Of a stretch of 44,776 bases of DNA, positions 3,308 to 43,768 are shown one piece after another. The position numbers and the translations under genes are program-made. Each line of letters opens with the position of its first letter. The first letter of the stretch is position 1. The notes beneath the pieces were generated by a model. It made no database searches. It was not told the origin of the DNA and saw nothing but the letters and a program-made list of their open reading frames with translations. The stretch comes from a virus (lineage: Duplodnaviria > Heunggongvirae > Uroviricota > Caudoviricetes), in the IMG/VR virus record IMGVR_UViG_2648501797_000002, positions 1 to 44,776 of that record. One strand, written 5' to 3'.

Positions 3308-3598
3308 TTAAAACGGGCAGCCGGTGCGGTGGTCCCAGTCATATTCCGCCTGGGCGTAAGCTACTGCCGAGATGAGATCGTTATATGCCTCGCCAGCTGC
3401 ATCGCTGCGGAGGCCTTCGTATGGGCTTTTGTCCATCGGCACAGAGAAGCGGAACAGGCCTGACGGCTCTTTCGGCAGGGCGTCGATAATTTCCTGCGCC
3501 CGATCGTCAATCCACTTTTGCTTCTCTTCGGTTAGCGACTGTTCAGCCCATTTCCTTTCTTCGATAGCGTCGTATGCGCGGTATGCGTTCATAAGCAC
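3308..3598 (-). CDS. Hypothetical phage early protein
   Basis: 96-aa ORF in the operon. Confidence 0.45.
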   Translation of the reverse strand: MLMNAYRAYDAIEERKWAEQSLTEEKQKWIDDRAQEIIDALPKEPSGLFRFSVPMDKSPYEGLRSDAAGEAYNDLISAVAYAQAEYDWDHRTGCPF

Positions 3599-3599
3599 C

Positions 3600-4571
3600 T
3601 CAGTAACTGATACCGGTATGGGGAATGCGGCCGTCTTTAACCGCTGTAAGCACCTCGATAGCCTGATCCCGAGTAAGGCTGGTATTGGCCAGAAGAGCTT
3701 TGACGATTTCAGTGCCTACAGCTTTGCGGTGCTTAACGTCGGCTTCGCGGCGAGCCTGCTCATCGGCTTTACGTTTCTCCTCAGCCAGGCGGGCCTGTTC
3801 GCGTTGCTCTGCCTCGCGGCGGATGCGATCGGCTTCTTCCTGAGCTTTGCGGCGCTCCGCTTCGATAGCGGCCAGCTTGTCAGCCTCAGCTTTCTTCTCG
3901 GCTGCAATGCGATCTCGCTCTGCCTGCTCAGCTTGTGCTTTCAACACAGCTTCGCGATGCGCCGCTTCTTCACGTTCACGCTGTGCGCGCTGCTCAACTT
4001 CTCGGGCTGCTGCGGCGGCTGCCATTCGCTTAATTTCTTCTTCATGGGCAATGCGCTGGCGCTCAGCCTCAGCTGCTTTATCCGCCTGCTCTCGGTCGAA
4101 AGCGTCATTCATCAGCATGGCCATTTCGTGGTCAGACTCAATCCGAGCTGCCAGCTGCCGATCGAACTCTTCATTCATGGCCAGTGCTTCGACGTGAAGG
4201 GCGTTCATGGCTTCTTCGGCCTTAATGCGTTCCTGCTCCGCCTCCCATTCGGTCAACGGGCGACGCACTTCATCTTTCAGTGCATCGAGACGCTCACGGA
4301 CAACGCGGCGGCTTTCATCAATCTGCTTTGGCAGCGTCTTCAGCTCAGCGACCAGGGCTTTACCTGCGTTGTCGATGTAGGTTTTAGAGCGCGCGACCTT
4401 GTGAGCCATGGATGCGATAGCATCGCGGCCTTTTTTGGTGGTCACGTCCGGCACCAGACTGCGAGCCTCTTTTTCGATCGCTTCGATAAGCGGATCGAGT
4501 TGGTCGTTATTGGTGAAAACCGCCATCGCGTTCTTTTTCTCGATGACGACTAAATCCATTATTTCGCTCAT
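3600..4571 (-). CDS. Hypothetical Ala/Glu/Arg-rich coiled-coil protein
   Basis: 323-aa ORF with a long low-complexity charged helical region (AEQAERDRIAAEKKAEADKLAA...). Confidence 0.55.
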   Translation of the reverse strand: MSEIMDLVVIEKKNAMAVFTNNDQLDPLIEAIEKEARSLVPDVTTKKGRDAIASMAHKVARSKTYIDNAGKALVAELKTLPKQIDESRRVVRERLDALKDEVRRPLTEWEAEQERIKAEEAMNALHVEALAMNEEFDRQLAARIESDHEMAMLMNDAFDREQADKAAEAERQRIAHEEEIKRMAAAAAAREVEQRAQREREEAAHREAVLKAQAEQAERDRIAAEKKAEADKLAAIEAERRKAQEEADRIRREAEQREQARLAEEKRKADEQARREADVKHRKAVGTEIVKALLANTSLTRDQAIEVLTAVKDGRIPHTGISY

Positions 4572-4658
4572 GGTTTCCCCTGAAATTTGGTTGTAAGAAT
4601 CCCGGCACCGTATTGGCTGCCTGATAGCTCAGTTAAATTCGTGCGCTGATATGCGCGG

Positions 4659-5144: not shown

Positions 5145-5212
5145 TACTCCGGGTATTATTTTATATCAATACCGCTAGTATTATAATATTTAATAAAAAT
5201 ACTAAAGGTATG
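5145..5212. promoter_or_regulatory. OL-type operator cluster: three ATAC-N5-GTAT palindromes (5145-5157, 5170-5182, 5200-5212) in an AT-rich intergenic region
   Basis: Same half-site architecture as the two operators between cI and cro. Confidence 0.5.
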
Positions 5213-5281
5213 ATTTTAAAGTTAATTTATTTTTGTAAAGAGTGCTGTTATGCTCAAAAAAACATCAGTAAGGGTGGCGGC

Positions 5282-14272: not shown

Positions 14273-14423
14273 GGTCATGGATCGCGGCATCTTCCGCGTG
14301 CCGGCGAGCCGCAAGCGCAAGGTCGAAGTTAAGCCTTCCGACATCCCGACCATGAAAGACTACACCGCCCGCCTGGTCGATAAGAAGTGGCTACGCCTGA
14401 GAGCAAGGAGGCCGCATGCTTAA
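14253..14423 (+). CDS. NinE-like protein
   Basis: C-terminal YTARLVDKKWLRLRARR resembles lambda NinE; GGAGGG RBS. Confidence 0.55.
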   Translation: MHSLLAKVMDRGIFRVPASRKRKVEVKPSDIPTMKDYTARLVDKKWLRLRARRPHA

Positions 14424-14997
14424 ACGTACTCAGCGCCGGTGCAAAATCTGCCGGGCAAAATTCACCCCAGCATTCGAAAACCACCGTTGGTGCTGCCCTG
14501 AGCATGGAGCTGAATTTGCCATGCAGGAACTGGAGAAGAAGCGCGAAAAACAGGCCCAGGCGAAAGCGAAGAAAGAGCGCGCAGCCTGGCGCAAGCGCAA
14601 AGCCGCGGTGAAGCCTCTCCGACACTGGGAAGACATGACCCAGCGCGTCGTTAACGACTATATCCGCGAGCGTGACCACGATCTGCCGTGCATCAGCTGC
14701 GGCACATTCGAAACAGTTCAGTGGGAAGCAGGTCATTACAGATCCCGCGGGAAAGCATCTCACCTGCGCTACAACGAGGACAACATTCACAAGCAGTGCC
14801 ATCACTGCAACGTGCAGATGTCAGGTAACCAGCAGCAGTACCGCATCGGCCTGGTAGAGAAAATCGGCGCTGAGCGCGTCGAGGCGCTCGAAAACAACAA
14901 CACCCCTCACCGATACACCATCGAAGAACTGGAAGGAATCAGGCGCCATTACAGCGCGCTACGCCGTGCGCTCATAAAACAACGGGAGGCCGCATGA
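14416..14997 (+). CDS. NinG/Rap-like protein
   Basis: Cys/His-rich pattern typical of NinG family; nin-region position. Confidence 0.7.
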   Translation: MLKRTQRRCKICRAKFTPAFENHRWCCPEHGAEFAMQELEKKREKQAQAKAKKERAAWRKRKAAVKPLRHWEDMTQRVVNDYIRERDHDLPCISCGTFETVQWEAGHYRSRGKASHLRYNEDNIHKQCHHCNVQMSGNQQQYRIGLVEKIGAERVEALENNNTPHRYTIEELEGIRRHYSALRRALIKQREAA

Positions 14998-15134
14998 ACC
15001 AGCTCGCCATAGAACGCATCCGCGAACACTGGCAAAAGCTCCGCCTCTGCCGGCACCGAGGCACCGTACTGGTTGACTACCGAATTTTGAAGAATTTCGT
15101 TCGCATCTATCAGACCCTGGGAGAGACAGCATGA
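14994..15134 (+). CDS. Hypothetical small nin-region protein (46 aa)
   Basis: Hand-translated; ATGA overlaps on both sides. Confidence 0.3.
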   Translation: MNQLAIERIREHWQKLRLCRHRGTVLVDYRILKNFVRIYQTLGETA

Positions 15135-15631
15135 AACTGGAATTAACCAACGAACAGCACCAGTGGATAGATCAGTGGCTCCAGCTTTGGGGCGCATGGT
15201 GCCAGACAGGGAAGATAGACAAGGCGATGATAAATATGATTGCCAAGTTCATGGCCACGGTTGAACCGCAAGTACCATCAAGGCCTGTATGCAGCGATGA
15301 TGATGGGTTGCTGATTGATGCCGTAATCCGGCATTACCTGAAAAACGTAGATGAGAACGCATGGAAGGTAATTTTTGCCTATTACGTCTGCAACTCAAGC
15401 GAGATAAGGATCGCCTCATGGCAGCATGCTGTGAGCAAGCCTCGCCTGATGAAGACGCGCGCCGGAAACCAGTATAAGCACCCGAGCATTTCAACCATCC
15501 GCCGGGAAGTTAAGCAGGTTATCAACGCGGCACTCTTCTGTCTGTACCAACCGCTGCAAAATGCGTTTAACGATCGCGATAGTGTGAGGAAAATTGCAAA
15601 AAATAGTCATAACGTGCTTGCATTTCAATGA
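15131..15631 (+). CDS. Late-gene antiterminator Q (QuuD / phage 82 Q-like family)
   Basis: WGAW...SRPVCSDDD...YYV pattern resembling QuuD-type Q proteins (recalled); followed by promoter-like and terminator elements. Confidence 0.7.
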   Translation: MKLELTNEQHQWIDQWLQLWGAWCQTGKIDKAMINMIAKFMATVEPQVPSRPVCSDDDGLLIDAVIRHYLKNVDENAWKVIFAYYVCNSSEIRIASWQHAVSKPRLMKTRAGNQYKHPSISTIRREVKQVINAALFCLYQPLQNAFNDRDSVRKIAKNSHNVLAFQ

Positions 15632-15692
15632 ACAAATGAGCAATATATTTAGTGTAGGTTGCCGTATTTGCGTTTGACCTATCAGAACACCG

Positions 15693-15718
15693 AGCCTCGC
15701 CATCGTGCGGGGCTTTTT
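15693..15718 (+). terminator. tR'-like intrinsic terminator downstream of the putative late promoter
   Basis: AGCCTCGC-CATCGT-GCGGGGCT hairpin followed by TTTTT. Confidence 0.5.
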
Positions 15719-15805
15719 CATGCCTGTGATCCGGTCAGGGCTCTTGGGTAGAGACGTGCTGCACGACACGTCAAAGCCCTTCCGCGCAGAGCCCTGAACC
15801 AGATT

Positions 15806-15880
15806 GCATCTGTCGTAGTTTGGTAATTACATCTGGCTTCCAACCAGAAAATGCGGGTTCGATCCCCGCCAGATGCTCCA
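15806..15880 (+). tRNA. Phage-encoded tRNA-Gly (anticodon UCC)
   Basis: 75-nt cloverleaf folded by hand: 7-bp acceptor stem, D-loop with GG, anticodon loop CUUCCAA, T-arm GCGGG-TTCGATC-CCCGC, discriminator U, CCA end. Confidence 0.75.
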
Positions 15881-15941
15881 ATCCCTCTACCTTGGGACCA
15901 TTACGGCTACCGCGCCGTCGCTTTTACCCTTGGTATTTCTT

Positions 15942-15963
15942 CCCGCCTTGAGCGGGTTTTTTA
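15942..15963 (+). terminator. Rho-independent terminator downstream of tRNA-Gly
   Basis: CCCGC-CTTGA-GCGGG followed by TTTTTTATT. Confidence 0.55.
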
Positions 15964-17217: not shown

Positions 17218-17353
17218 CACCCCGCAACCGGAAATCCCCGACAACCTGACGTGGGGCCAGAGCCTGGATTTAAACGTCAGTCTGCTATCAGCGCTTGGCC
17301 AGTGCAACAGGGATAAGGCCGATATCAGGCAAGCAGAATCAAAACGTCAGTAG
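17102..17353 (+). CDS. Rz1-like o-spanin lipoprotein (overlapping Rz in an alternate frame)
   Basis: Lipobox LAQLSGC; Pro-rich mature region; overlaps the 3' part of Rz. Confidence 0.6.
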   Translation: MMIALIALCLLAQLSGCSNTRTVYVKVPVVPLPASLTADTPQPEIPDNLTWGQSLDLNVSLLSALGQCNRDKADIRQAESKRQ

Positions 17354-17388
17354 GGCATTACAGAGCCACTTCAAGAGGTGGCTCGATA

Positions 17389-18186
17389 ATGTCAAGCGAG
17401 GACAAAATTATGGCAACACCGGACTGGGAGGCCATCGAATCGGCATACCGGGCCGGAGTCCTTAGTCTCCGTGATATAGGCGATAAATACGGCGTTACTG
17501 AAGGGGCTATCAGGAAGAGGGCTAAAAAGTTTGATTGGGTACGCAAGGCCAGTACGCAGGTACGCAAAAATGGTACGCAAAGTGGTACGCAAAAGAGTAA
17601 GGCGCGTACCAGCGAAAAGCCTGCCAGCTCTGGCCGTACGCAAAAAAGTACGCAACCAAAATCCGAACCTCCACCAGATACGAAACCGATACGCGGGGTG
17701 CGTACCGATCCGCCGACCAACCCATTCCAACCCGGCAACCAGCAGGCGTTAAAGCATGGTGGCTACGCCCGCCGCCTTCTGCTTAAAGATGAGGTCATTG
17801 AAGACGCGAAGGCGTTGACACTCGAAGACGAATTATTTCGCCTTCGGGCTAACAACCTTGTCGCCGCAGAGAATATTGGCCGGTGGTTGACCAAGCTGGA
17901 TGATGCTGAAGGGGACCAGGAAAGAAAGGTGTTGATGGAAAATATCAGCGCCGCCGAGAAGGCGATGATGCGCAATACCGTTCGTATTGAGTCCATCGTC
18001 GGCACGCTTGCGACGGTAGGCAAAATATTTGCTGATACAGACTATCGCAAGGCTGCTACTGATAAGGTGTCGCTGGAGGCTGATCGTCTTCGCCGTGATG
18101 CAGGTATTGATGATGGCAACGGAGAGCGTGACCTCAATGACTTCTACTCTGACATCCAAACCGACGCTGAATCCGGTCCTGCGTAG
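17389..18186 (+). CDS. Terminase small subunit
   Basis: N-terminal HTH-like region, position directly upstream of terminase large subunit; contains GTACGCA repeat cluster. Confidence 0.65.
   Translation: MSSEDKIMATPDWEAIESAYRAGVLSLRDIGDKYGVTEGAIRKRAKKFDWVRKASTQVRKNGTQSGTQKSKARTSEKPASSGRTQKSTQPKSEPPPDTKPIRGVRTDPPTNPFQPGNQQALKHGGYARRLLLKDEVIEDAKALTLEDELFRLRANNLVAAENIGRWLTKLDDAEGDQERKVLMENISAAEKAMMRNTVRIESIVGTLATVGKIFADTDYRKAATDKVSLEADRLRRDAGIDDGNGERDLNDFYSDIQTDAESGPA
17539..17654 (+). repeat. Cluster of seven direct GTACGCA(A) repeats (plus one inverted copy) within the terminase small subunit gene; candidate pac/TerS-binding site
   Basis: Repeats read directly at 17539, 17552, 17560, 17573, 17585, 17636, 17648. 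Confidence 0.5.
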
Positions 18187-19537
18187 CTTCTGGACGACGC
18201 AGGCGCGTAACAAAGTGCTTTATGGTGGCCGGTCATCGTCAAAATCGTGGGATGCCGCTGGCATAGCCATATTTCTGTCGAATAAATACAGCCTGCGCTT
18301 TTGCTGTGCACGTCAGATCCAGAACAAAATTGAAGAGTCGGTATATACCCTGCTCAAAATTCAGATTGACCGCTTTGGCCTGCGGCATCGCTTCCGCATT
18401 CTGAACAACAAAATCATTAACCGGGTGACCGGGTCTGAATTCGTCTTTTATGGGCTCTGGCGCAACATTGAAGAGATTAAGTCTCTGGAAGGTATCAGCG
18501 TTCTTTGGCTTGAAGAGGCCCACGCGCTGACGGAATACCAGTGGAAGATACTGGAGCCTACCATCCGTAAAGAGGGCTCAGAGTGCTGGTTTATCTTTAA
18601 CCCCGGACTGGTGACTGATTTCGTGTGGCGTAACTTTGTGGTCGATCCGCCAGAAGATACGCTGATACGCAAAATCAACTACGATGAAAACCCCTTTTTG
18701 TCCGACACCATGCTGAAGGTTATCGAGGCCGCTAAGCGCCGGGATCCGGATGGGTTTAAGCACGTCTACGAAGGTGTGCCAGAGTCGGATGATGATGCGG
18801 CCATTATCAAGCTGTCATGGATTGAGGCGGCCGTTGATGCCCACAAAGTCCTTAATTTCGAGCCGAGCGGGCGTAAGCGTATTGGCTTCGACGTTGCTGA
18901 TAGCGGCGCCGATAAGTGCGCTAACGTCTATCGTCACGGCTCCGTCGTGTACTGGGCGGATGAGTGGAAGGCGAAAGAAGACGAATTGCTGAAGAGCTGC
19001 CAGCGTACCTATCAGGCGGCACTGGAGCGTGATGCTGATATCGTCTACGACTCAATCGGCGTTGGGGCATCTGCTGGCGCGAAATTCTCAGAAATTAATG
19101 AGGATCGTAAGCGCGAAAATATGAATGCATCCCGCATCAATTATCAGCGATTCAATGCTGGCGCTGGTGTGAATGAGCCGGACTACGAATATATTGGCAT
19201 CCCGAACAAGGATTTTTTCGCCAACCTCAAAGCGCAAGCCTGGTGGCTGGTGGCGGATCGCTTCCGTAACACCTTCAACGCGGTAAAGAACGGCGAGCAG
19301 TACCCGGTAGATGAGCTGATAAGCATCGACTCATCCTGCCCGCTGCTGGAAAAGCTCAAGCTGGAACTTACCACCCCGCACCGTGATTTTGACAAAAACG
19401 GTCGCGTGATGGTGGAAAGCAAGAAAGACCTCGCAAAGCGTGACGTACCATCGCCGAACGTGGCCGACGCGTTCATCATGGCGTTTGCTCCAACCGATAC
19501 GGCAATGGATATCTGGGAAGCGCTGGGAAACAGCTAA
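18137..19537 (+). CDS. Terminase large subunit
   Basis: Walker-A-like VLYGGRSSSKSWDAAG near the N-terminus; about 465 aa; start codon ambiguous (18110-18137). Confidence 0.85.
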   Translation: MTSTLTSKPTLNPVLRSFWTTQARNKVLYGGRSSSKSWDAAGIAIFLSNKYSLRFCCARQIQNKIEESVYTLLKIQIDRFGLRHRFRILNNKIINRVTGSEFVFYGLWRNIEEIKSLEGISVLWLEEAHALTEYQWKILEPTIRKEGSECWFIFNPGLVTDFVWRNFVVDPPEDTLIRKINYDENPFLSDTMLKVIEAAKRRDPDGFKHVYEGVPESDDDAAIIKLSWIEAAVDAHKVLNFEPSGRKRIGFDVADSGADKCANVYRHGSVVYWADEWKAKEDELLKSCQRTYQAALERDADIVYDSIGVGASAGAKFSEINEDRKRENMNASRINYQRFNAGAGVNEPDYEYIGIPNKDFFANLKAQAWWLVADRFRNTFNAVKNGEQYPVDELISIDSSCPLLEKLKLELTTPHRDFDKNGRVMVESKKDLAKRDVPSPNVADAFIMAFAPTDTAMDIWEALGNS

Positions 19538-19774
19538 ATACCTGGAAATAACCGTTTCACGCAAAATTCACGCTATTCATTTTTCGACCCTGTTTATGCA
19601 TGTTTTATTCACGCGCTTTTAGCCACTTAACCCCGATAAATAAGCCTTTGGCGGACATTTCATCATGGGAGGGATCCGGCTGGTGCGGGTAACAGTCATT
19701 ATGTTAAATCGGGTCATTTTTTAACAAATTATCCTATCCGCCACGAGTACCAAAAAAGCCGGAGAATAGTCACC

Positions 19775-21226
19775 ATGGCGAAGAAAACAGGACGAGTCGC
19801 CACGGCGGATTCGTACGATAACTTTGTTGCCCGTGTCGGTATGCAGCAGCCTAACCAGCATGCCGCATCGACCTACAGGGCGAACTATACCAGCCGCAAC
19901 CGCCTGCTCATCGAGTGGGCTTATCGTTCCTCCTGGATTATTGGTGCCGCAGTCGATTCGAAAGCGGACGATATGACCAAAAAGGGCGTGCGGATCACCA
20001 GTGAGATTGACCCGAAACGTCGTGGCGTTCTGGAATCGCGGTTCGATGAGCTTCAGCTCTGGGATTGCATCAACGAGACGCTGAAATGGTCCCGGCTGTA
20101 TGGCGGGGCGGTGGCGCTGATTCTGATTGAAGGTCAGGCACCGCTGACGCCGCTGGTGCTGGATAAGGTTGGCAAGGGCAGCTTTAAAGGTCTGGCTGTA
20201 CTTGACCGCTGGATGATTAACCCGCAGCTCACCAGGCGCATTAAGGCGCTTGGCCCTAACCTCGGCAAGCCTGAATTCTATGAAATCGTGACAACGGCGC
20301 AGGGGCTTCCTCCTTGGACTGTTCACCACAGCCGCCTGATCCGCATGGATGGTGTGAAACTGCCGTATCAGCAGAAAATCACCGAAAACGAATGGGGGAT
20401 GTCCATTGTCGAGCGCATCTTCGATCGCCTGACTTCCTACGATAGCACCAGCGTCGGCGCCGCCCAGCTTGCCTACAAGGCACATCTGCGAACGGCAAAG
20501 ATTAAAAAGCTGCGTGAAATTATCGCCACAGGCGGTAAAGCGTTTGAGGCGCTTATCAAGAATATGGAAATGGTCCGCCAGTACCAGACGAACGAGGGTA
20601 TGTCCCTGTTTGATTCGGAGGACGAATTTGAAACACATTCCTATTCTTTCGCGGGCCTGTCTGACCTGCTTAGCGAGTTTAAAGAGGATATCGCGGGCGC
20701 TGTTGGCATTCCTCTTGTCCGCCTGTTCCGCCAGTCACCGAAGGGTTTTTCAACCGGTGACGCTGACCTTGCGAACTACTATGACGACGTGGGAACGCTT
20801 CAGGAGCGAGATTTACGGCCTCACATCCGCCTGTTATTCGATGTACTGCATCGCTCAGAGTTTGGCGAGCCGTTGCCGCAAGATTTCACTTTTGAGTTTA
20901 ACCCCCTGTGGCAGATGAGCGACACCGATCGCTCTACGGTGGCGACCAACACGACTACCGCTCTGGCAACCGCGGTGCGTGATTTGGGAATGTCGCCGGC
21001 TGCTGCGCTGACCGATTTGCGCGAGCTGTCTGACGTTACCGGCATCGGTGCTTCAATTAGCGATGAGGATATCCAGAATGCGGCGAAACAGTGGCAGGAG
21101 ACTGAATCTGAAACCAGCCCTCCGCCGCCGATCGGAGGTCCAGTATCAGAAAAGCCTACTGGCGATAGTCGACCAGATAAATCAAATCGTCACGGGTTCC
21201 TACGATGGTTCACAGGCAAGCGCTGA
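19775..21226 (+). CDS. Portal protein
   Basis: 483-aa ORF immediately downstream of terminase; size and position typical. Confidence 0.7.
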   Translation: MAKKTGRVATADSYDNFVARVGMQQPNQHAASTYRANYTSRNRLLIEWAYRSSWIIGAAVDSKADDMTKKGVRITSEIDPKRRGVLESRFDELQLWDCINETLKWSRLYGGAVALILIEGQAPLTPLVLDKVGKGSFKGLAVLDRWMINPQLTRRIKALGPNLGKPEFYEIVTTAQGLPPWTVHHSRLIRMDGVKLPYQQKITENEWGMSIVERIFDRLTSYDSTSVGAAQLAYKAHLRTAKIKKLREIIATGGKAFEALIKNMEMVRQYQTNEGMSLFDSEDEFETHSYSFAGLSDLLSEFKEDIAGAVGIPLVRLFRQSPKGFSTGDADLANYYDDVGTLQERDLRPHIRLLFDVLHRSEFGEPLPQDFTFEFNPLWQMSDTDRSTVATNTTTALATAVRDLGMSPAAALTDLRELSDVTGIGASISDEDIQNAAKQWQETESETSPPPPIGGPVSEKPTGDSRPDKSNRHGFLRWFTGKR

Positions 21227-21830
21227 GAGCATTGCCAAATCGCTTGTTGACTACTCCGGGGTGATCGACGACTGGGCCGAAATGGTCGGTCGAAAGATGT
21301 TTGCCCAGGTGGAGCGTGAAGAGTGGAATCAGTGGCGTTCTGTTTCGGAAGAAATATCTGCTGGTCTGCGTGACGTGATTAGTAACACTCCAGTCGGCAT
21401 GGTGGCGCAAGACATCGTTTACCGGCAGATTCGCTATATGAAGTCGCTGCCATTAGAGGCGGCAGGACGAGTCAGGGAAATTCAGGAGCGTGCAATACAA
21501 GCTGTCATCCATGGTGAGCGTCCAGATCAGCTTTACGAGATGATCATGCAGTCCGGCGACGTGGCGGCCAGCAGGGCGCGAATGATAGCTCGCACTGAGA
21601 TTGGTCGCGCTACTGGCGCACTGACTCAGGCACGAGCGCTGGCCGTTGGCTCTGAGGGTTACTGGTGGCGCATTGAAGGTGCAGGCACCAGGCCATCACA
21701 CCGAAAAATGAAAGATAAGTTTGTGCGCTGGGATAGCCCGCCAACGCTTGACGGCATGACCGGACACGCCGGATGCCTGCCTAACTGCAAGTGTTGGTCG
21801 GAAGTGCAGATCCCCGAACCAAAAAAATAA
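21078..21830 (+). CDS. Head morphogenesis protein (Mu F / SPP1 gp7-like)
   Basis: Position after portal; family assignment from memory; start uncertain (21063, 21078 or 21282). Confidence 0.5.
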   Translation: MRRNSGRRLNLKPALRRRSEVQYQKSLLAIVDQINQIVTGSYDGSQASAESIAKSLVDYSGVIDDWAEMVGRKMFAQVEREEWNQWRSVSEEISAGLRDVISNTPVGMVAQDIVYRQIRYMKSLPLEAAGRVREIQERAIQAVIHGERPDQLYEMIMQSGDVAASRARMIARTEIGRATGALTQARALAVGSEGYWWRIEGAGTRPSHRKMKDKFVRWDSPPTLDGMTGHAGCLPNCKCWSEVQIPEPKK

Positions 21831-21881
21831 CAGGCCGCCAATGAGCGGCCTTTTCAATGCCCGCAATTCAGCAGGTAACCC

Positions 21882-23084
21882 ATGAAATATTTCTTTAAAA
21901 CCCGCCTGGGCAATACTCGATTTCAACTTGCTGATGGGTCAGTCCTGTTTAAGGACGTCCCGATCGCAAGGACTGGTGAGCAGGTATATGGCGCTGAGGA
22001 GCTGCCTGACCTGCAGCCTGATAGCCACGGACTCATAACCGTACAGCGCACGCCTGAAGAAGTTTTCAGCGAGCGCACTATCGCATCGTTTGAGGGTATG
22101 GCCGTCACGATAGGCCACCCCAAAGACTTCAGCGGAAACATCATCTTCGTCACGCCAGAAAACTGGCGGCAACTCTCTAACGGGCACATCCAGAACGTTC
22201 GCCGAGGCGCGGGTGATAAATCAGACCTGCTGCTGGCGGACGTCATTGCCAAAACGCCTGAGGCCATTCAGGCAGTGGAGAACGGCGACGAAGAGGTGAG
22301 CTGCGGTTATGACGCTGACTACCGACAAATCTCGCCGGGCATCGCAGAGCAGTACGCGATAACCGGTAATCATCTGGCCTTTGTCCCTAACGGGCGGGCT
22401 GGTTCACGTTGTGCATTGGGAGACGCTATGCCGAGCACTACTAAAAACTGGTTTACCCGGCTGTTGAAGGCCCGTAAAACCAACGATGCCGCCGAAATGG
22501 CGAATCTTATCGACAACCCGCCTGATGATGTCACGGGCGATAACGATGTATCGACCTCTATGACACCCGGCGGAGTGGTCATCAACCTTGCACCGCAAAA
22601 TCCGCTTCCCGGCCCGGCATTGCCTGGTACCGGCGATGGTGAGGAAGAAATTCCTGCATGGGGTAAGGCGCTGATTGAGGCGGTGGCCAAACTCACGCCT
22701 GCGGCAGCTGCTCCTGGTACCGGCGATGCCGAGGATGAAGAGGAGAAAAAGGAAGAGGAGGGTAAAGTTACCGGCGACGCCGCTTACCGTGCCGATCTGA
22801 TTCAGCCTGGCATCCAGTTGCCAGAAAAGGCGAAGCCGACAGCATTCAAGCGTCAGGTGCTCGCTTCTGCCGATCAATCACTGGTGCGCTCTATTGTCGG
22901 TGATGCCGATATCAGCAAGCTGAAAAAAGCCACGGTAGATATGGCTTTCACGGCTGTTTCTGAGCTGGCGAAAAACCGCAATACCAAAACCGTCGACAGC
23001 CTGCAAACGCAGACTGCCACCACTGTTAAAACCATTGCCGGTATGAATCAGGCCGCGCAGGAATTCTGGTCTAAACGAGGCTAA
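21882..23084 (+). CDS. Putative head scaffold/maturation protein (DUF2213-like)
   Basis: 400-aa protein with acidic low-complexity central region, upstream of capsid gene. Confidence 0.45.
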
Positions 23085-23087
23085 CCA

Positions 23088-23582
23088 ATGGGTAATACAT
23101 TTCTTTACCGGATGCCAGCGGGCATCGCCGGGGCAATTTCTCGTCCGCAGGATCTGACGGTTGAACCTCAACTCCTGGACTCCTCCAACCTTTTTCCCGC
23201 TTACGGCCTTGGCGGCAAGATTTCCTCCGGGAAATTTGTGCCAATCGCTGCGAGCGATACAGCGTCGGTGCTGGTGGGCATTTACGTTCGTCCGTATCCG
23301 ACCGCCAGCCAGCCGGATAAAGTCCAGCAGGTAGGCAGCGGTAAAAACTTCACCGGCGATTGCCTGGTACGTGGTTACGTCACGGTAAACATCGGCGCGG
23401 ATGCATCCAGCGTTGCGCTGCATGGCCCGGTCTATATGCGAGTGGCCACACCAACCGCCTCAAGCCCTCTCGGGGCGTTCCTTGCCGCCGCTGATGGCTC
23501 GAATACCGTCCAGATCACCAATGCTTACTTTAATGGCCCTGGTGACACCAGCGGCAACATTGAGCTGGCCTTCAATATCTAA
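23088..23582 (+). CDS. Putative head structural/decoration protein
   Basis: 164-aa ORF between scaffold-like and capsid genes. Confidence 0.4.
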   Translation: MGNTFLYRMPAGIAGAISRPQDLTVEPQLLDSSNLFPAYGLGGKISSGKFVPIAASDTASVLVGIYVRPYPTASQPDKVQQVGSGKNFTGDCLVRGYVTVNIGADASSVALHGPVYMRVATPTASSPLGAFLAAADGSNTVQITNAYFNGPGDTSGNIELAFNI

Positions 23583-23593
23583 GGAAATCGCAA

Positions 23594-24532
23594 ATGCAGA
23601 CATTTGACCAGGCGACAGTCGACGGTACTGGTGCCTTTCTTATCCATGAACTGGAACGTCTCGATCAGACACTGAATCTGCCACTGGTGAATTTTACCTG
23701 GTCGCGCGATATCCAGTTGCGTGAAGACGTGTCTATTGCTGACGAGATCAGCTCTTTCACTAACACCACTTTTGCTGCTGCCGGTACACCGAATGCTAAC
23801 GGCAAAAACTGGCTTAGCAAAGCCGCGACCGCGATGGCTGGGCTTAACGTCGACATCGCAAAAACTGGCTTCCCGCTTACCCTGTGGGGTATGGAGCTGG
23901 GATGGACCGTTCCCGAATTGCAGGCAGCTGCGCAGGTTGGTCGCCCGATCGACACGCAGAAGTACGACGGCATGCAGCTGAAGTGGAACATGGACACAGA
24001 CGAGCAGGTTTATATCGGCGATTCCGGTCTGAACGTTAAAGGCCTGATGAACCTGACGCAGGTAACGCCGACCAACGCAGCGAAGACCTGGGCGACCTCC
24101 ACCGCTGACGAAATCCGGGCGAGCATTAATGCCGGGTTGAGTGCTGCGTGGGCCAACTCAGCTTACTCCATGGTACCGACGGACCTGCTGATCCCGCCGG
24201 AGCAGTTCTCTCTGCTGGCAAGCACCATCGTATCCAGCGCTGGTAACCAGTCCTTGCTGACCTATCTGGAAACCAACACCATCGCATACCACCAGAACGG
24301 GCGTCCTCTGAACATCCGTCCGGTGAAATGGGCGAAAGGTCGTGGCGTGTCGAGCTCTGATCGCATGATGTTCTACACCAACGACAAGAAATACGTTCGC
24401 TTCCCGATGGTTCCGCTGATGAGCGTGCCGATCCAGTATCGCGGCCTGTATCAGCTCGTAACCTATTACGGGAAGCTGGGTGCAGTAGAGCCGGTTTATC
24501 CGGAAACTCTGGCCTACGTCGACGGCATCTAA
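23594..24532 (+). CDS. Major capsid protein (putative)
   Basis: 312-aa ORF with strong RBS in canonical position, followed by a GC-rich stem-loop. Confidence 0.6.
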   Translation: MQTFDQATVDGTGAFLIHELERLDQTLNLPLVNFTWSRDIQLREDVSIADEISSFTNTTFAAAGTPNANGKNWLSKAATAMAGLNVDIAKTGFPLTLWGMELGWTVPELQAAAQVGRPIDTQKYDGMQLKWNMDTDEQVYIGDSGLNVKGLMNLTQVTPTNAAKTWATSTADEIRASINAGLSAAWANSAYSMVPTDLLIPPEQFSLLASTIVSSAGNQSLLTYLETNTIAYHQNGRPLNIRPVKWAKGRGVSSSDRMMFYTNDKKYVRFPMVPLMSVPIQYRGLYQLVTYYGKLGAVEPVYPETLAYVDGI

Positions 24533-24562
24533 CCTGCGGCGGCCCGAAAGGGCCGCTCATGA

Positions 24563-25743
<1,181 letters not shown>

Positions 25744-33096: not shown

Positions 33097-33125
33097 AAAA
33101 GCCCTGAGTTAATCAGGGCTAAAAT
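33094..33125. terminator. Bidirectional intrinsic terminator (AGCCCTGA-GTTAA-TCAGGGCT flanked by A and T runs)
   Basis: Perfect 8-bp stem between convergent genes. Confidence 0.55.
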
Positions 33126-33126
33126 C

Positions 33127-33444
33127 TCACTGCTTAAATATTTGCGATAGAACTATGGCGGCAATGATGAAAACTGCAAGCCTCCACCAATGGATCCCTT
33201 CCCTTTGAGCCGTTGGTTCCTGTTCTGAAAATTCCTCTTCCGATGTAGCTTTTCCAGATTTTTTCCCTGGGCCAACGGTGTATGACAAACCGGATCCCGG
33301 AATTCCAACGGTGGTTTTTATTCCTCTTCCACTTATGTTGGTAGTGGCGCCTTTTGGGCCAATCGACGTACTAACGCCACTCTTGCTGATATTGATTGCT
33401 AGGCCTGGAGCTATGCGTATCCGCTTCCTAAATCTGAAGCCCAT
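33127..33444 (-). CDS. DUF4236-like membrane-anchored protein (moron)
   Basis: N-terminus MGFRFRKRIRIAPGLAINISKSG... with Gly-rich repeats, matching DUF4236 as recalled; C-terminal transmembrane helix; opposite strand to flanking tail genes. Confidence 0.55.
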   Translation of the reverse strand: MGFRFRKRIRIAPGLAINISKSGVSTSIGPKGATTNISGRGIKTTVGIPGSGLSYTVGPGKKSGKATSEEEFSEQEPTAQREGIHWWRLAVFIIAAIVLSQIFKQ

Positions 33445-37648: not shown

Positions 37649-37706
37649 GTCACTAAATTACCAGAAAGCAAACTGACCTTATGGTCGGTTTTTTATTGGG
37701 GCGACC

Positions 37707-39857
37707 ATGAGTGAATACGATACCGGCAATCCTGTGCCGTCTGCATCCATGCCTGATGCATGGGATAATATGCAGTCTATTGACAAGTTCGTTAATAGCA
37801 GTGATGAAACCATTACCACACGCACAGGCAAACAGTTAGATACTTTGCATGGCGTTAATGTTAAGGCGGACAACCAGCTAACGCAGCAGCAAGCAGACTT
37901 TGAAACCTCGCAAGAAGAAAGGGATGCTGTAGTTGAGGAAACCAGGCAGAACCTGATCCCTCTGAGCAAGCAATACATGACGCTTGCTGATGCGCAGGCA
38001 GATATCGCAAATATCCCGGTGGGGTCTACCACGTATTACCGCAGTCCTGATGATAGCGCGCTGGCTATTGAAGTAATTAACAATGGTGGCACTCTTGAGC
38101 CCACCGGTAGAAAAATGCCATCTAAGAAGTATATAGATGATGAAATTGCTCCTTACTCCCCTTTGTTAAATATAACCCAAGCATCAGAATTCTTTTCCTC
38201 TGATGAATATAAAGATTCTGGGGTCGAAGAGGCTATATTAGATGAAAATAAAAAAACACTACTATCCAGAAAAGGCGCTGAGTGGTTTTTTCAAAAAATA
38301 ATAGCGGGAGAAATCAGCGCAGATGAATTTTCTGCCGAAATCCTTTCAGGTAATGACATTTTGATTTCCGGGCAGAGCCTTCTTGGAATCGTTCCTTTTT
38401 TACAGGCTTCGACATTTGTCGATATATCTGAATTTTCGGATTCGGGGTATGATTCCGCAACTTTTTCTGAAAACAATAGAATCATTGTTGGCATTAAAGG
38501 GACCACCCTTTATTTTAGCAAAATTGTCGTTGGTGATGCTGTAATTGAAGGAAGCGATTTTACAGAGGTAAAGGGTGTTACTGACGCATTATCACCTCTT
38601 CCAGAGTCAGTAACATTTCTCTCACCTGATGAGTATGCAGATAGTGGATACATTTCGGCATCCACATCTGAAAACCTGGTTGTTATCGAGTCGCTGAAAT
38701 CATCGGACCTGACAAACTCAGGTCATCCTGATTACATTGCATTTAGCGAAGAGAAAGGAGGCTATGAGCAGATTTTCCTGTTTGATCGCGATACAGGTCA
38801 GCAGGTTCGTGTAACCAATACATCCAGTAATGAAACCCTGCCACGCGTTGATGGTGATAAGGTTATCTGGCAATCGGACAGGGAGACTAATCGCGCACCG
38901 GGTGGGCAGTATTATTGCTATATCAGTGATCTGACTGAGCACTCTGTAATGTCCAGGCCGATCATTTGCGGGTGGGGCCATTCAATGGTTGACAACCCCC
39001 GTATGCTGACACGCCTGCAGGAGCTAACCGGATACACGGCCTATAACTTTGGCAAAAGCTCACGCACAAGCGTTGGCACAGCTGCTGCTCAGGGTGGGCG
39101 CAGAGCGTATTACGTTCCAGTTGGCGGCAGCATTCCTGCCAGCGGTTCGGTAACTCTTTCTCCGGCAAACCCGGGGCCACTGAGTTATTTTGCCAACGCC
39201 GCAGCATCGACGCCGTTCCACGGTTCTCTGGCTGGCATTCCAGGCAATTTTGCATGGGATGGAACGAATGCCACATTTACCCGTGATGCATCTGGTGATG
39301 CGGTTAGCGTACCTGTTGCCGTGCCATTCATTTGTGATCCGGTGACCACTGGCGCTATTACCGGAGGCATTCCGGCAGGAACATCTTTCCCTCTTCACCC
39401 TGAATGTATAAATATTTTCTGGATGGGAAGGAATAATATTAGCCAGTCAATGCAGGTTCTCAGCGACACTATTGGTGTAGTTGAATACCTTAAATCTCTT
39501 GGGCAGAAGGTTATTATCCTGCCTGATTTTAACAGCAGTGTTGAGCCCCGTGGATCAGCAGGTTATGCAAACGTCATGTTATCAAACAGCATGATTAAAA
39601 AGAAATACCCTGAGTTATGGTGCGAAATTGATAGTGTTGATATGAGGGAAAACTTCGTAAACAACTATAATCCAGCATATTCTCAGGACGTTTCTGACTT
39701 TGGAAATGATATCCCTCCAACTTCATTGAAGTATGACGGACTGCATCCTAGCCAATCGAAAGAAACATCTAACGCCCCTGAATATGCATTGCAGGCTGGC
39801 GCGGACGTAAACGCTGAATTTATTTACCAGAAATTTCAATTATTAGGGTGGGTGTAA
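37707..39857 (+). CDS. Tailspike/receptor-binding protein with central PD40-like beta-propeller region and C-terminal SGNH/GDSL-type esterase domain
   Basis: C-terminal DGLHPS block-V-like motif and GWGHSM block-I-like motif; central YIAFSE...DGDKVIWQSDRE resembles TolB-type PD40 repeats; AT-rich 5' half. Confidence 0.55.
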   Translation: MSEYDTGNPVPSASMPDAWDNMQSIDKFVNSSDETITTRTGKQLDTLHGVNVKADNQLTQQQADFETSQEERDAVVEETRQNLIPLSKQYMTLADAQADIANIPVGSTTYYRSPDDSALAIEVINNGGTLEPTGRKMPSKKYIDDEIAPYSPLLNITQASEFFSSDEYKDSGVEEAILDENKKTLLSRKGAEWFFQKIIAGEISADEFSAEILSGNDILISGQSLLGIVPFLQASTFVDISEFSDSGYDSATFSENNRIIVGIKGTTLYFSKIVVGDAVIEGSDFTEVKGVTDALSPLPESVTFLSPDEYADSGYISASTSENLVVIESLKSSDLTNSGHPDYIAFSEEKGGYEQIFLFDRDTGQQVRVTNTSSNETLPRVDGDKVIWQSDRETNRAPGGQYYCYISDLTEHSVMSRPIICGWGHSMVDNPRMLTRLQELTGYTAYNFGKSSRTSVGTAAAQGGRRAYYVPVGGSIPASGSVTLSPANPGPLSYFANAAASTPFHGSLAGIPGNFAWDGTNATFTRDASGDAVSVPVAVPFICDPVTTGAITGGIPAGTSFPLHPECINIFWMGRNNISQSMQVLSDTIGVVEYLKSLGQKVIILPDFNSSVEPRGSAGYANVMLSNSMIKKKYPELWCEIDSVDMRENFVNNYNPAYSQDVSDFGNDIPPTSLKYDGLHPSQSKETSNAPEYALQAGADVNAEFIYQKFQLLGWV

Positions 39858-42371: not shown

Positions 42372-43568
42372 TTACTCTCCTGCGCGACCATCGATGTAAT
42401 CAGCCCACCACTGCATCATTTCTCTGCGCTTATCGAGATACTGAGCATGGTTGTAAATACCGCGCACAGATCCGCCGTTGGCATGTGCCAGCTGCACTTC
42501 AATAGCGTCAGCAGGCCATTCGTGCTCGTTCATAATCGTGCTGAATTCATGCCTGAATCCGTGACCGCTTTCCAGACCTTCATAGCCGATTTGTTTGATC
42601 ACAAGCAATACCGCGTTCTCGCAGATTGGCTTCTTCTTATCGTTGCGCCCGGCAAAAACAAACTCTGAGACTGGTTTGGTGATTGAGCTTAGCGTAGTGA
42701 GAAGTTCAACCACCTGGTCTGACATCGGGACCACATGAATTTTGCGTCCCTTCATCACACTGGCGTCGATGGTGATAATCCTGTTTTCAAAATCGACGTT
42801 CTTCCATAGCATGGAACGAAGCTCTTTTGTTCTTAGGGCTGTGTAGCGTAAAACTTTGGTCGCAATGAGCGATACGATACTTCCTGAAAATGTTGCAAGT
42901 GCTTTGTTGAATGCCGGGATCTGGTCGGCAGGTAAAAACGGGAAGTTCTTCTTGCGGTATCCCTTCATGGCGTCAGCAAGGTCAGGTGCCGGGTTATATT
43001 TAGCCCTACCAGTGACAATAGCGTAACGGAAAACCTCGCCGCATCTTCTGCGGGCTTTGTTGGCTCGCTCCATTGCACCGCGATCTTCAAATCTGCGGAT
43101 TACTTCCAGCAGTTGCATCGGCTCAATATCCTGAATCTCAAGACCGCCGATGATGGGTAAAATGTCGTCATCAAACATTTTGGCAAGTTCAGTTGCATAG
43201 CCTACTGACCAGACTTGCTTCTTGTGCTCGTACCATTCCTTGTAAATCGCACTAAATGAATTGTTGTTAGACGAAGCCTTTTTCGTCTTTACCGGATCGA
43301 TGCCAACCGAGATGTCTTTCCTCGCAGTCCATGCCTTATCCCTTGCTTCCTGCAAAGTCATAAGCGGATATTTTCCGACGGTCAGGATTTTCTCCTTACC
43401 GTCAATCTTGTAGCGAAGCTGCCATACCTTTTTCCCTGACACAGGGACATAAAGGTACAGGCCATTACCATCGAGAAGGCGGTATGGTTTTTCTTTCGGC
43501 TTTGCTGCTTCAATCTGCTTAACGGTGAGCATGGGTAAAAATCCGGTGGGTAAAATTATTTTATCCAC
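42372..43568 (-). CDS. intS: Tyrosine integrase (IntS-like)
   Basis: C-terminal HGFRHEF and tyrosine-containing motifs; adjacent to tRNA-Arg 3' end; symbol assigned from the argW-adjacent genomic context in E. coli. Confidence 0.85.
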   Translation of the reverse strand: MDKIILPTGFLPMLTVKQIEAAKPKEKPYRLLDGNGLYLYVPVSGKKVWQLRYKIDGKEKILTVGKYPLMTLQEARDKAWTARKDISVGIDPVKTKKASSNNNSFSAIYKEWYEHKKQVWSVGYATELAKMFDDDILPIIGGLEIQDIEPMQLLEVIRRFEDRGAMERANKARRRCGEVFRYAIVTGRAKYNPAPDLADAMKGYRKKNFPFLPADQIPAFNKALATFSGSIVSLIATKVLRYTALRTKELRSMLWKNVDFENRIITIDASVMKGRKIHVVPMSDQVVELLTTLSSITKPVSEFVFAGRNDKKKPICENAVLLVIKQIGYEGLESGHGFRHEFSTIMNEHEWPADAIEVQLAHANGGSVRGIYNHAQYLDKRREMMQWWADYIDGRAGE

Positions 43569-43693
43569 TTTTTACCCGTCATGGAGTGCGGCTGTCAACG
43601 ATCTGACGCGAACCATGACGAACTGTGAATCTACGGGAGGCTTGATATTCAGGGGATTTTGCGGACTGGTACGGATGGGAGCGAACTGATAAA

Positions 43694-43768
43694 TGGTGTC
43701 CCCTGCAGGAATCGAACCTGCAATTAGCCCTTAGGAGGGGCTCGTTATATCCATTTAACTAAGAGGAC
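43694..43768 (-). tRNA. argW: tRNA-Arg (anticodon CCU)
   Basis: 75-nt cloverleaf on the minus strand: acceptor GTCCTCT/AGGGGAC, anticodon loop CUCCUAA, T-arm GCAGGTTCGATTCCTGC, CCA end. Confidence 0.9.

Follow-up and report, generated by a model that had tools for sequence, protein, structure and literature searches.

Two GC-rich hairpins bracket the DUF2213, cement and major capsid genes of this virus, and their retention among relatives supported well the conclusion that both form as stem-loops in the plus-strand late mRNA and have been kept by evolution. We put the chance as about even that they act post-transcriptionally, as 3'-to-5' decay barriers or as insulators, more than as strong attenuators, and a strong terminator role is unlikely for either of them. 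Positions are those of the window, the whole stretch of DNA that was analysed (44,776 nt).

The window is a lambda-like Klebsiella temperate myophage or prophage. Its head region was 92-97% identical to those of ST405-OXA48phi1.2, GZ7, Mulock and the Wanchaivirus PDP110P2, and its closest classified relative falls in the subfamily Hendrixvirinae, to which HK97 also belongs. The regulatory and lysis functions of Mulock have been likened to those of lambda (PMC6856289), and Q antitermination switches on the late operons of lambdoid phages (PMC2629481; PMC7547250). Lambda-like late control was evident in the window, which holds a NinG gene (14416-14997, by Pfam), a plus-strand gene for a lambda-type Q antiterminator upstream of both hairpins (15131-15631; Pfam PF06530, E 6.5e-22) and a terminator hairpin right after Q. 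Pfam also identified a large terminase gene and the portal gene (19775-21226), and it confirmed the identities of the head genes, of which the head morphogenesis and capsid genes had been named in an earlier note on this DNA. On the plus strand the head genes are a Mu-F-like head morphogenesis gene (longest ORF 21048-21830, TAA stop 21828-21830; Phage_Mu_F, PF04233, E 3e-13), a DUF2213 scaffold/protease-like gene (21882-23084; PF09979), a cement/minor capsid gene (23088-23582; PF23982/PF22758) and the major capsid gene (23594-24532, TAA stop 24530-24532; PF09950, Major_capside). The start annotated for the Mu-F-like gene in Mulock corresponds to ~21282 in the window, and a DUF2213 protein is annotated as the head maturation protease of Burkholderia phage Magia. 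The last three genes make up the block bracketed by hairpins A and B (21882-24532, plus strand). A strong hairpin was present in every gap of more than ~30 nt between plus-strand late genes, at 17363-17384, hairpin A, hairpin B, 33100-33120 and 37670-37691, except for the 237-nt gap between the terminase and portal genes, where a conserved non-coding element stands in place of a hairpin.

Hairpin A (21832-21851, plus strand) lies in the 51-nt gap after the Mu-F-like gene and begins 2 nt past its TAA. Its 7-bp stem, with six G-C pairs, joins AGGCCGC (21832-21838) to GCGGCCT (21845-21851) around the loop CAATGA. The hairpin reported earlier at 21834-21854 is present, as that range covers hairpin A and the UUUU beside it; the U-tract claimed with it stood only in part, being four U followed by C (21851-21854, plus strand) after the six G-C pairs. 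The run reads UUUUCAAU when counted from the G-C core and holds four T in 8 nt when counted from the full stem. The GC-rich stem of at least 5 bp and the loop of 3-8 nt agree with a canonical intrinsic terminator, and the ~5 or more U expected within 8 nt past the stem are missing; with a U-tract too short, hairpin A did not appear on the plus-strand list of the terminator scan. The scan reported the site on the minus strand only, as its top match; on that strand, the A-rich Mu-F end supplies a T-run. A minus-strand terminator was rejected, as the A-rich run is the Mu-F coding end and is not kept in relatives with long gaps, and as no credible minus-strand gene ends at the site. Predicted folding gave -13.6 kcal/mol (z -3.3, with none of 200 shuffles equally stable), placing hairpin A among the top dozen or so simple plus-strand hairpins of the whole 44.8-kb window. 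Between the U-tract and the DUF2213 gene lies a conserved leader and ribosome-binding block, CAATGCCCGCAATTCAGCAGGTAACCC (21855-21881, plus strand). A weak mini-hairpin (21860-21864/21871-21875) overlaps the AGGT Shine-Dalgarno sequence of the DUF2213 gene (21873-21876); it was not significantly stable (-6.1 kcal/mol, z -1.3), and it was 81% paired among relatives without compensatory changes.

Hairpin B (24538-24557, plus strand) begins 5 nt past the capsid TAA, where a GAAA-tetraloop stem had indeed been noticed before. Its 8-bp stem consists of GGCGGCCC (24538-24545) and GGGCCGCT (24550-24557), with seven G-C pairs, an outermost G.U pair and the GAAA loop at 24546-24549. At -20.8 kcal/mol (z -3.9, again with 0 of 200 shuffles equally stable), it was the most stable simple plus-strand hairpin of the 44.8-kb window. 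Stem and loop agree with an intrinsic terminator and the U-tract is absent: one T occurs in the 8 nt past the stem, and the plus-strand terminator scan did not list the site. On its 3' side the sequence runs CAT-GAGGA-N6-ATG, the GAGGA being the Shine-Dalgarno sequence of a plus-strand 93-aa ORF (24561-24565, 3 nt past hairpin B) and the ATG its start codon (24572-24574). Hairpin B thus matched the post-capsid stem-loop of lambdoid phages in lying on the late strand, at most ~15 nt past the capsid stop and ahead of the next ribosome-binding site, and in keeping its position among relatives despite sequence turnover.

Each hairpin sequence occurred once in the 44.8-kb window, even with three mismatches allowed, and dispersed palindromes of the REP/BIME type were rejected on that single copy. 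An RNase III site of the T7 R-site type, with ~20 or more bp of double-stranded RNA, was also rejected, as the stems are 7-8 bp and the longest predicted extension is three pairs across an internal loop. When the whole window was searched against Rfam at gathering thresholds, two tRNAs passed and nothing else; in E-value mode, 19400-24700 and the YP3 locus gave no match beyond tRNAs. For hairpin A the best sub-threshold match was Trp_leader, at 23.3 bits where 41 are required (E 0.21).

The conservation of hairpin B was assessed in 13 loci from phages and 80 from prophages, with each species represented by one genome, collected via alignment of the capsid protein, with homologous genes placed by tblastn. 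A post-capsid hairpin, scored as -9 kcal/mol or better within 45 nt past the capsid stop, was found in 50 of 53 distinct enterobacterial-type junctions (94%, median -13.3), and in one of the three exceptions it was placed slightly further downstream. By the same measure, 3.9% of random 45-nt windows from these loci held a hairpin, and the stretches behind the portal, Mu-F, DUF2213, cement or 93-aa genes reached 0-16%; at -13 or better, the share of random 45-nt windows from related loci fell to 0.5%. The sequences themselves turned over, with 29 distinct stems among the post-capsid hairpins and the G-rich arm swapping sides (GGCCCC/GGGGCC vs GGCGGG/CCCGCC). Loops of the GNRA type capped 29 of the 50 (58%; GAAA 20, GCAA 5, GUAA 3, GCGA 1), and UCCG or UCAC occurred among the others. 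Five or more T in the 8 nt past the stem were present in only 11 of the 50 (22%), and 33 had two or fewer; as the U-tract is mostly missing, the conserved property does not need it. G.U pairs made up 15 of 340 stem pairs, and the plus strand was the more stable in 31 of 50. Direct MAFFT alignment misaligned stems of reversed arm polarity, and artificial constant flanks were used to force an ungapped register. Among 38 tetraloop versions aligned in this register, pairing was possible in 85.5% of cells vs 57% in shuffles, with double changes at all eight pairs; as this set was chosen for folding, that covariation is partly circular, and the positional enrichment serves as the independent, unbiased test.

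The junction was laid out in the same way in all 50 relatives: the stop codon, 3-13 nt, the hairpin, 1-9 nt, the Shine-Dalgarno sequence and the start codon. The start codon was typically 4-19 nt from the stem (median 14, with two outliers at 30 and 33), and in variants without a U-tract the Shine-Dalgarno sequence began 1-5 nt past the stem. No post-capsid hairpin was found in the relatives from Burkholderia, Cupriavidus, Pseudomonas and Acinetobacter, in which the next Shine-Dalgarno sequence sits on the stop codon; the absence from these beta-proteobacterial, Pseudomonas and Acinetobacter relatives indicated that the device is optional. In Salmonella phage SEN34 (L010, 6961-7010), the post-capsid hairpin is (A)UGGCCCC-GAAA-GGGGCCA, and its 5' arm contains the annotated ATG of gene 8 (6969); judging by the sequence, the downstream ATG behind GAAGGA is more likely the start.

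Hairpin A was less widely kept, and its relatives differed in their U-tracts. Of 54 distinct enterobacterial sequences, 30 had a hairpin directly ahead of the DUF2213 start, at Mu-F/DUF2213 gaps of ~50 nt and of 255-842 nt alike. In 22 of these 30, the 8 nt past the stem held five to seven T, and the relatives' U-tract was U5-U8. The retention of hairpin and U-tract before DUF2213 identified the hairpin A family as a canonical intrinsic terminator. The block that follows them, TGCCCGCAATTCAGCAGGTAACCC-ATG, was strikingly conserved, and this leader and ribosome-binding block was nearly identical even where the DUF2213 protein was only 44-55% identical. In an alignment of 31 relatives anchored on natural flanks, 90.7% of the cells of the helix were paired and changes on both sides occurred at five of the seven pairs. 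At one pair, 16 sequences have U.G and 13 have C-G; a U.G wobble is an A.C mismatch on the other strand, and the pattern is therefore a signature of plus-strand RNA. In the Klebsiella clade that includes the window, the U-tract had decayed (UUUUCAAUG), and a G-to-T change that breaks one pair is common to the Klebsiella phages GZ7, RCIP0034 and RCIP0098. As these three phages are viable, hairpin A is not strictly required. Both hairpins of ST405-OXA48phi1.2 and of Mulock are identical to A and B. The Brunovirus-like SEN34, yong1 and E. coli 689R2 had no hairpin A in a 14-nt gap and retained hairpin B. Between the two sites, the comparative set offers a clean natural experiment on hairpin versus U-tract: the hairpin persists whether or not a U-tract goes with it, arguing that the conserved job is that of an RNA hairpin and not that of termination.

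The junction between the Mu-F and DUF2213 genes is a hot spot for insertions as well: among relatives that retain the hairpin, the gap ranges from 28 to 842 nt. Gaps of 455-854 nt occurred in L019, L021, L029, L053 and L083; some relatives carry inserts of several hundred nt before the hairpin, and in ST16-OXA48phi5.2 a 64-aa ORF follows hairpin A (junction loci L005 4376-4570 and L008 4332-4658 were also noted). At deep divergence (L006, L007, L053, L054, L082-L087), Mu-F was 75-82% identical and the DUF2213, cement and capsid proteins 45-60%, and by these comparisons the genes on the two sides of the junction have different histories. Inside DUF2213, identity to Mulock and PDP110P2 dropped to 63-84% in a patch at 22000-22500, from 92-100% across most of the head-gene region on either side. 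The patch was 98-100% identical to ST405-OXA48phi1.2 and GZ7; it was called recombinant. A mosaic breakpoint at hairpin A itself was rejected for the Klebsiella clade, as its divergent patch is this one within DUF2213.

Similar hairpins are recorded in model phages. The HK97 record (NC_002167) annotates a "putative terminator" at 3309-3335, just before the protease gene, another at 5192-5213, just after the major head gene, and further ones on both sides of the major tail gene. The first two resemble those of the window, as late-strand hairpins of a lambdoid phage that flank the stretch from protease gene to capsid gene; the post-capsid one, GGGGGCGGG-GAAA-CCCGCCC-UUUU, begins 7 nt past the stop and has the GAAA loop of hairpin B. 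HK97 differs in the short U-runs behind its hairpins (UUUU, or AAUUUUUAU at the first) and in its genes, as a protease and an HK97-fold gp5 take the place of DUF2213, cement and PF09950 proteins and are not their sequence homologues. In P22 (NC_002371, 6102-6119), a stem-loop lies 6 nt past the stop of coat gene 5 and was described by its annotators as [quoted passage not shown]. In lambda, ATGGCCC-UUCG-GGGCCAU lies 2 nt past the E stop and is followed by the FI Shine-Dalgarno sequence, and the D-E gap holds GGCCGC-CUGU-GCGGCU with U7, similar in sequence to hairpin A. The P22 and lambda hairpins likewise lie within Q-antiterminated late operons; their loops differ (UGCG and UUCG), and the upstream lambda hairpin lies between the decoration and capsid genes, whereas hairpin A precedes the scaffold gene. 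Compared by sequence with HK97, P22 and lambda, hairpins A and B add one more case to a recognised design and are hence ordinary. We found no direct functional test of post-capsid hairpins in lambdoid phages in the literature; the Mulock genome announcement does not mention terminators, and the Mulock record annotates none at either hairpin site. The bracketing of high-copy head genes by hairpins reaches here an unrelated gene set (Mu-F, DUF2213, cement and PF09950 capsid) and extends to Klebsiella and many other enterobacterial prophages, which is of little weight by itself. It could be of use in annotation, as for the SEN34 start inside a hairpin, in the design of expression cassettes and in engineered phages.

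Intercistronic hairpins that stabilise mRNA are known from the Rhodobacter puf operon, the E. coli malE-malF REP sequences and papB-papA, and stable tetraloop hairpins lie between genes of T4. A stabiliser hairpin after the gene of an abundant subunit shields the upstream segment from 3' exonucleases and so sets subunit ratios, and extra-stable tetraloops are typical of such elements. The REP sequences are dispersed repeats, whereas hairpins A and B are single-copy, and stabilisation by either of them is put forward here as a proposal. In this proposal, the long Q-antiterminated late transcript would be made in full and then cut downstream by an endonuclease, the cut being an assumption. Hairpin B, a GNRA-capped, U-less clamp between the capsid stop and the next Shine-Dalgarno sequence, would block 3'-to-5' exonucleases, allowing the DUF2213-cement-capsid segment with its three high-copy head genes to outlive the low-copy segment for head completion and tail. 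Hairpin A would be a weakened intrinsic terminator through which Q-modified polymerase passes; it probably stops unmodified polymerase, would insulate a junction that carries inserts in relatives, and would leave a protective 3' hairpin on upstream fragments. We infer that Q-modified late RNA polymerase probably reads through both hairpin sites, and likewise that RNA is processed and protein ratios are affected.

We favoured an RNA-level role because hairpin B conserves the hairpin and its extra-stable loop and not a U-tract, because Q-modified polymerase is expected to ignore such sites (PMC2629481), and because attenuation at hairpin A would lower the most-needed genes. Against the post-transcriptional model, the U-tract of hairpin A is kept in most relatives, which argues that termination itself is important at this site, in those phages at any rate. 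Also against it, polymerase without Q modification could come from the promoter-like element that precedes the portal gene. The earlier note had offered partial terminators or RNA-stability elements as the function. The case for a functional late-mRNA element is strong, given the conserved hairpins, their compensatory and plus-strand wobble changes and the HK97, P22 and lambda equivalents; of the two mechanisms, RNA stability fits better, and the partial terminator fares worse with the U-less hairpin B, the degraded U-tract of hairpin A and the upstream Q gene.

Leaky intrinsic termination, in which some polymerases would stop at each hairpin and lower downstream transcription, is unlikely. 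Its model is T-phi of T7, a hairpin right after capsid gene 10 that raises the capsid message relative to those of downstream genes. Inefficient terminators that balance expression are documented in phages, with T7 as a cited case (PMC9163698). T-phi differs in being a true terminator of T7 RNA polymerase with a U-tract, whereas the window relies on host polymerase and Q and its hairpin B is U-less. The canonical U-tracts of most hairpin A relatives, the U-tracts at 11 of the 50 post-capsid hairpins and the naming of the equivalent HK97 sites as putative terminators agree with leaky termination. However, with one T in 8 nt at hairpin B and UUUUC at hairpin A, neither site passes the plus-strand scan, the Q antiterminator gene lies upstream, and stopping at hairpin A would cut expression of the scaffold, cement and capsid genes, for which the need is highest.

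Translational insulation appeared quite unlikely. Ribosomes that leave the capsid gene, which is heavily translated, would be held back by the hairpin from drifting into the next cistron and starting again there, and the hairpin may also partly mask the next Shine-Dalgarno sequence, holding the downstream low-copy protein low. The stereotyped order of stop, hairpin and Shine-Dalgarno sequence, with its 1-5 nt spacing in U-less variants, argues for such a role, as does the placement of the next Shine-Dalgarno sequence directly on the stop codon in hairpin-less relatives. Around hairpin B, CCU (24533-24535) is predicted to pair with the AGG of the Shine-Dalgarno sequence, but this pairing is only 3 bp, and insulation leaves hairpin A and the U-tract variants unexplained. 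A much stronger structure of the same type hides the ribosome-binding site of terS: the extended hairpin at 17350-17400 (-24.9 kcal/mol, z -6.5) pairs both the Shine-Dalgarno sequence (GAGGUGG) and the start codon (AUG at 17389) of the gene for the small terminase, is stronger than hairpin A or B, and on predicted folding looks like a translational brake.

The non-coding element in the 237-nt terminase-portal gap (19625-19775, core 19682-19709) was an observation in its own right. Its core holds the invariant TTATGTTAAAT (19699-19709 in the window), and further blocks keep a fixed phase (GACATTT, GAGT and GGTGCGGnTAA). We found 24 copies in 22 related loci, on the late strand every time, with the terL or portal ATG 25-65 nt past the TTATGTTAAAT motif and, in many relatives, hairpin A ~33 nt past it. 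The form that precedes hairpin A, ~210 nt with fixed internal spacing, was seen in Yersinia YP3, EKP1 and several Enterobacter, Kosakonia, Rahnella and Erwinia prophages. YP3 (L006) carries two near-identical copies of a 261-nt element that includes hairpin A (1930-2257 and 4331-4591); after the first copy, before the portal gene, comes a second hairpin, AGGCGGG-GAAA-CCCGCC with U6, of the sequence type of the post-capsid hairpin in Enterobacter prophages L082-L087. Fourteen diverse copies of the element aligned without gaps over ~100 nt, and it showed no ORF above 33 aa, no Rfam match and no sigma-70 call. A structured RNA was rejected, as RNAalifold gave no conserved pairs. Gap-free alignment without conserved RNA pairs or an ORF suggests that the element is a DNA signal, with a late promoter or a loading site for a regulator as candidates. 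If it were a dedicated late promoter or antitermination loading site, it would represent a second, undescribed layer of late control for the head genes, and hairpins A and B would then act on transcripts without Q modification. By analogy with lambda pR'-tR', hairpin A might be the leftover terminator half of a promoter-plus-terminator late module, a possibility that we considered very doubtful.

Signals at the DNA level without an RNA role, such as recombination linkers at module boundaries or protein-binding palindromes, had only a slim chance of accounting for the hairpins. Junction A does part modules of different histories at deep divergence, and the hairpin is kept there through gaps of 28 to 842 nt at a hot spot for insertion. 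However, stem sequences turn over freely while pairing is kept, G.U wobbles function on the plus strand only, GNRA and UNCG-type loops point to RNA stability, and the divergent patch of the Klebsiella clade lies away from hairpin A. Chance GC-rich palindromes without function, with which a terminator-like scan showing no overall enrichment in this region (28 sites vs 20.5 +/- 5.1 expected) would agree, are effectively refuted by the z-scores of -3.3 and -3.9, the position kept in 94% against a background of 3.9% and the compensatory changes in the stems.

Other structures were noted along the window. The region directly after the Q gene (15632-15960) resembles lambda pR'-tR' in its layout, with a hairpin at 15692-15715 followed by U5, a tRNA-Gly(UCC) at 15806-15880 and a second, strong terminator at 15942-15956 followed by U7, ahead of the lysis genes. 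In the tail cluster, a bidirectional terminator-like hairpin (33100-33120, z -5.9) with A- and T-runs alongside separates a plus-strand tail gene from a lone minus-strand 105-aa ORF (33127-33444), a moron-like layout. The hairpin with U6 at 37670-37691 (z -3.1) has the shape of a canonical terminator and lies inside the late operon, 16 nt before a 716-aa ORF at 37707. At the end of the window, a minus-strand tRNA-Arg(CCU) (43694-43768) adjoins a 398-aa minus-strand ORF (42372-43568), and 42372-43768 is probably the end of the prophage that holds the integrase and attachment site.
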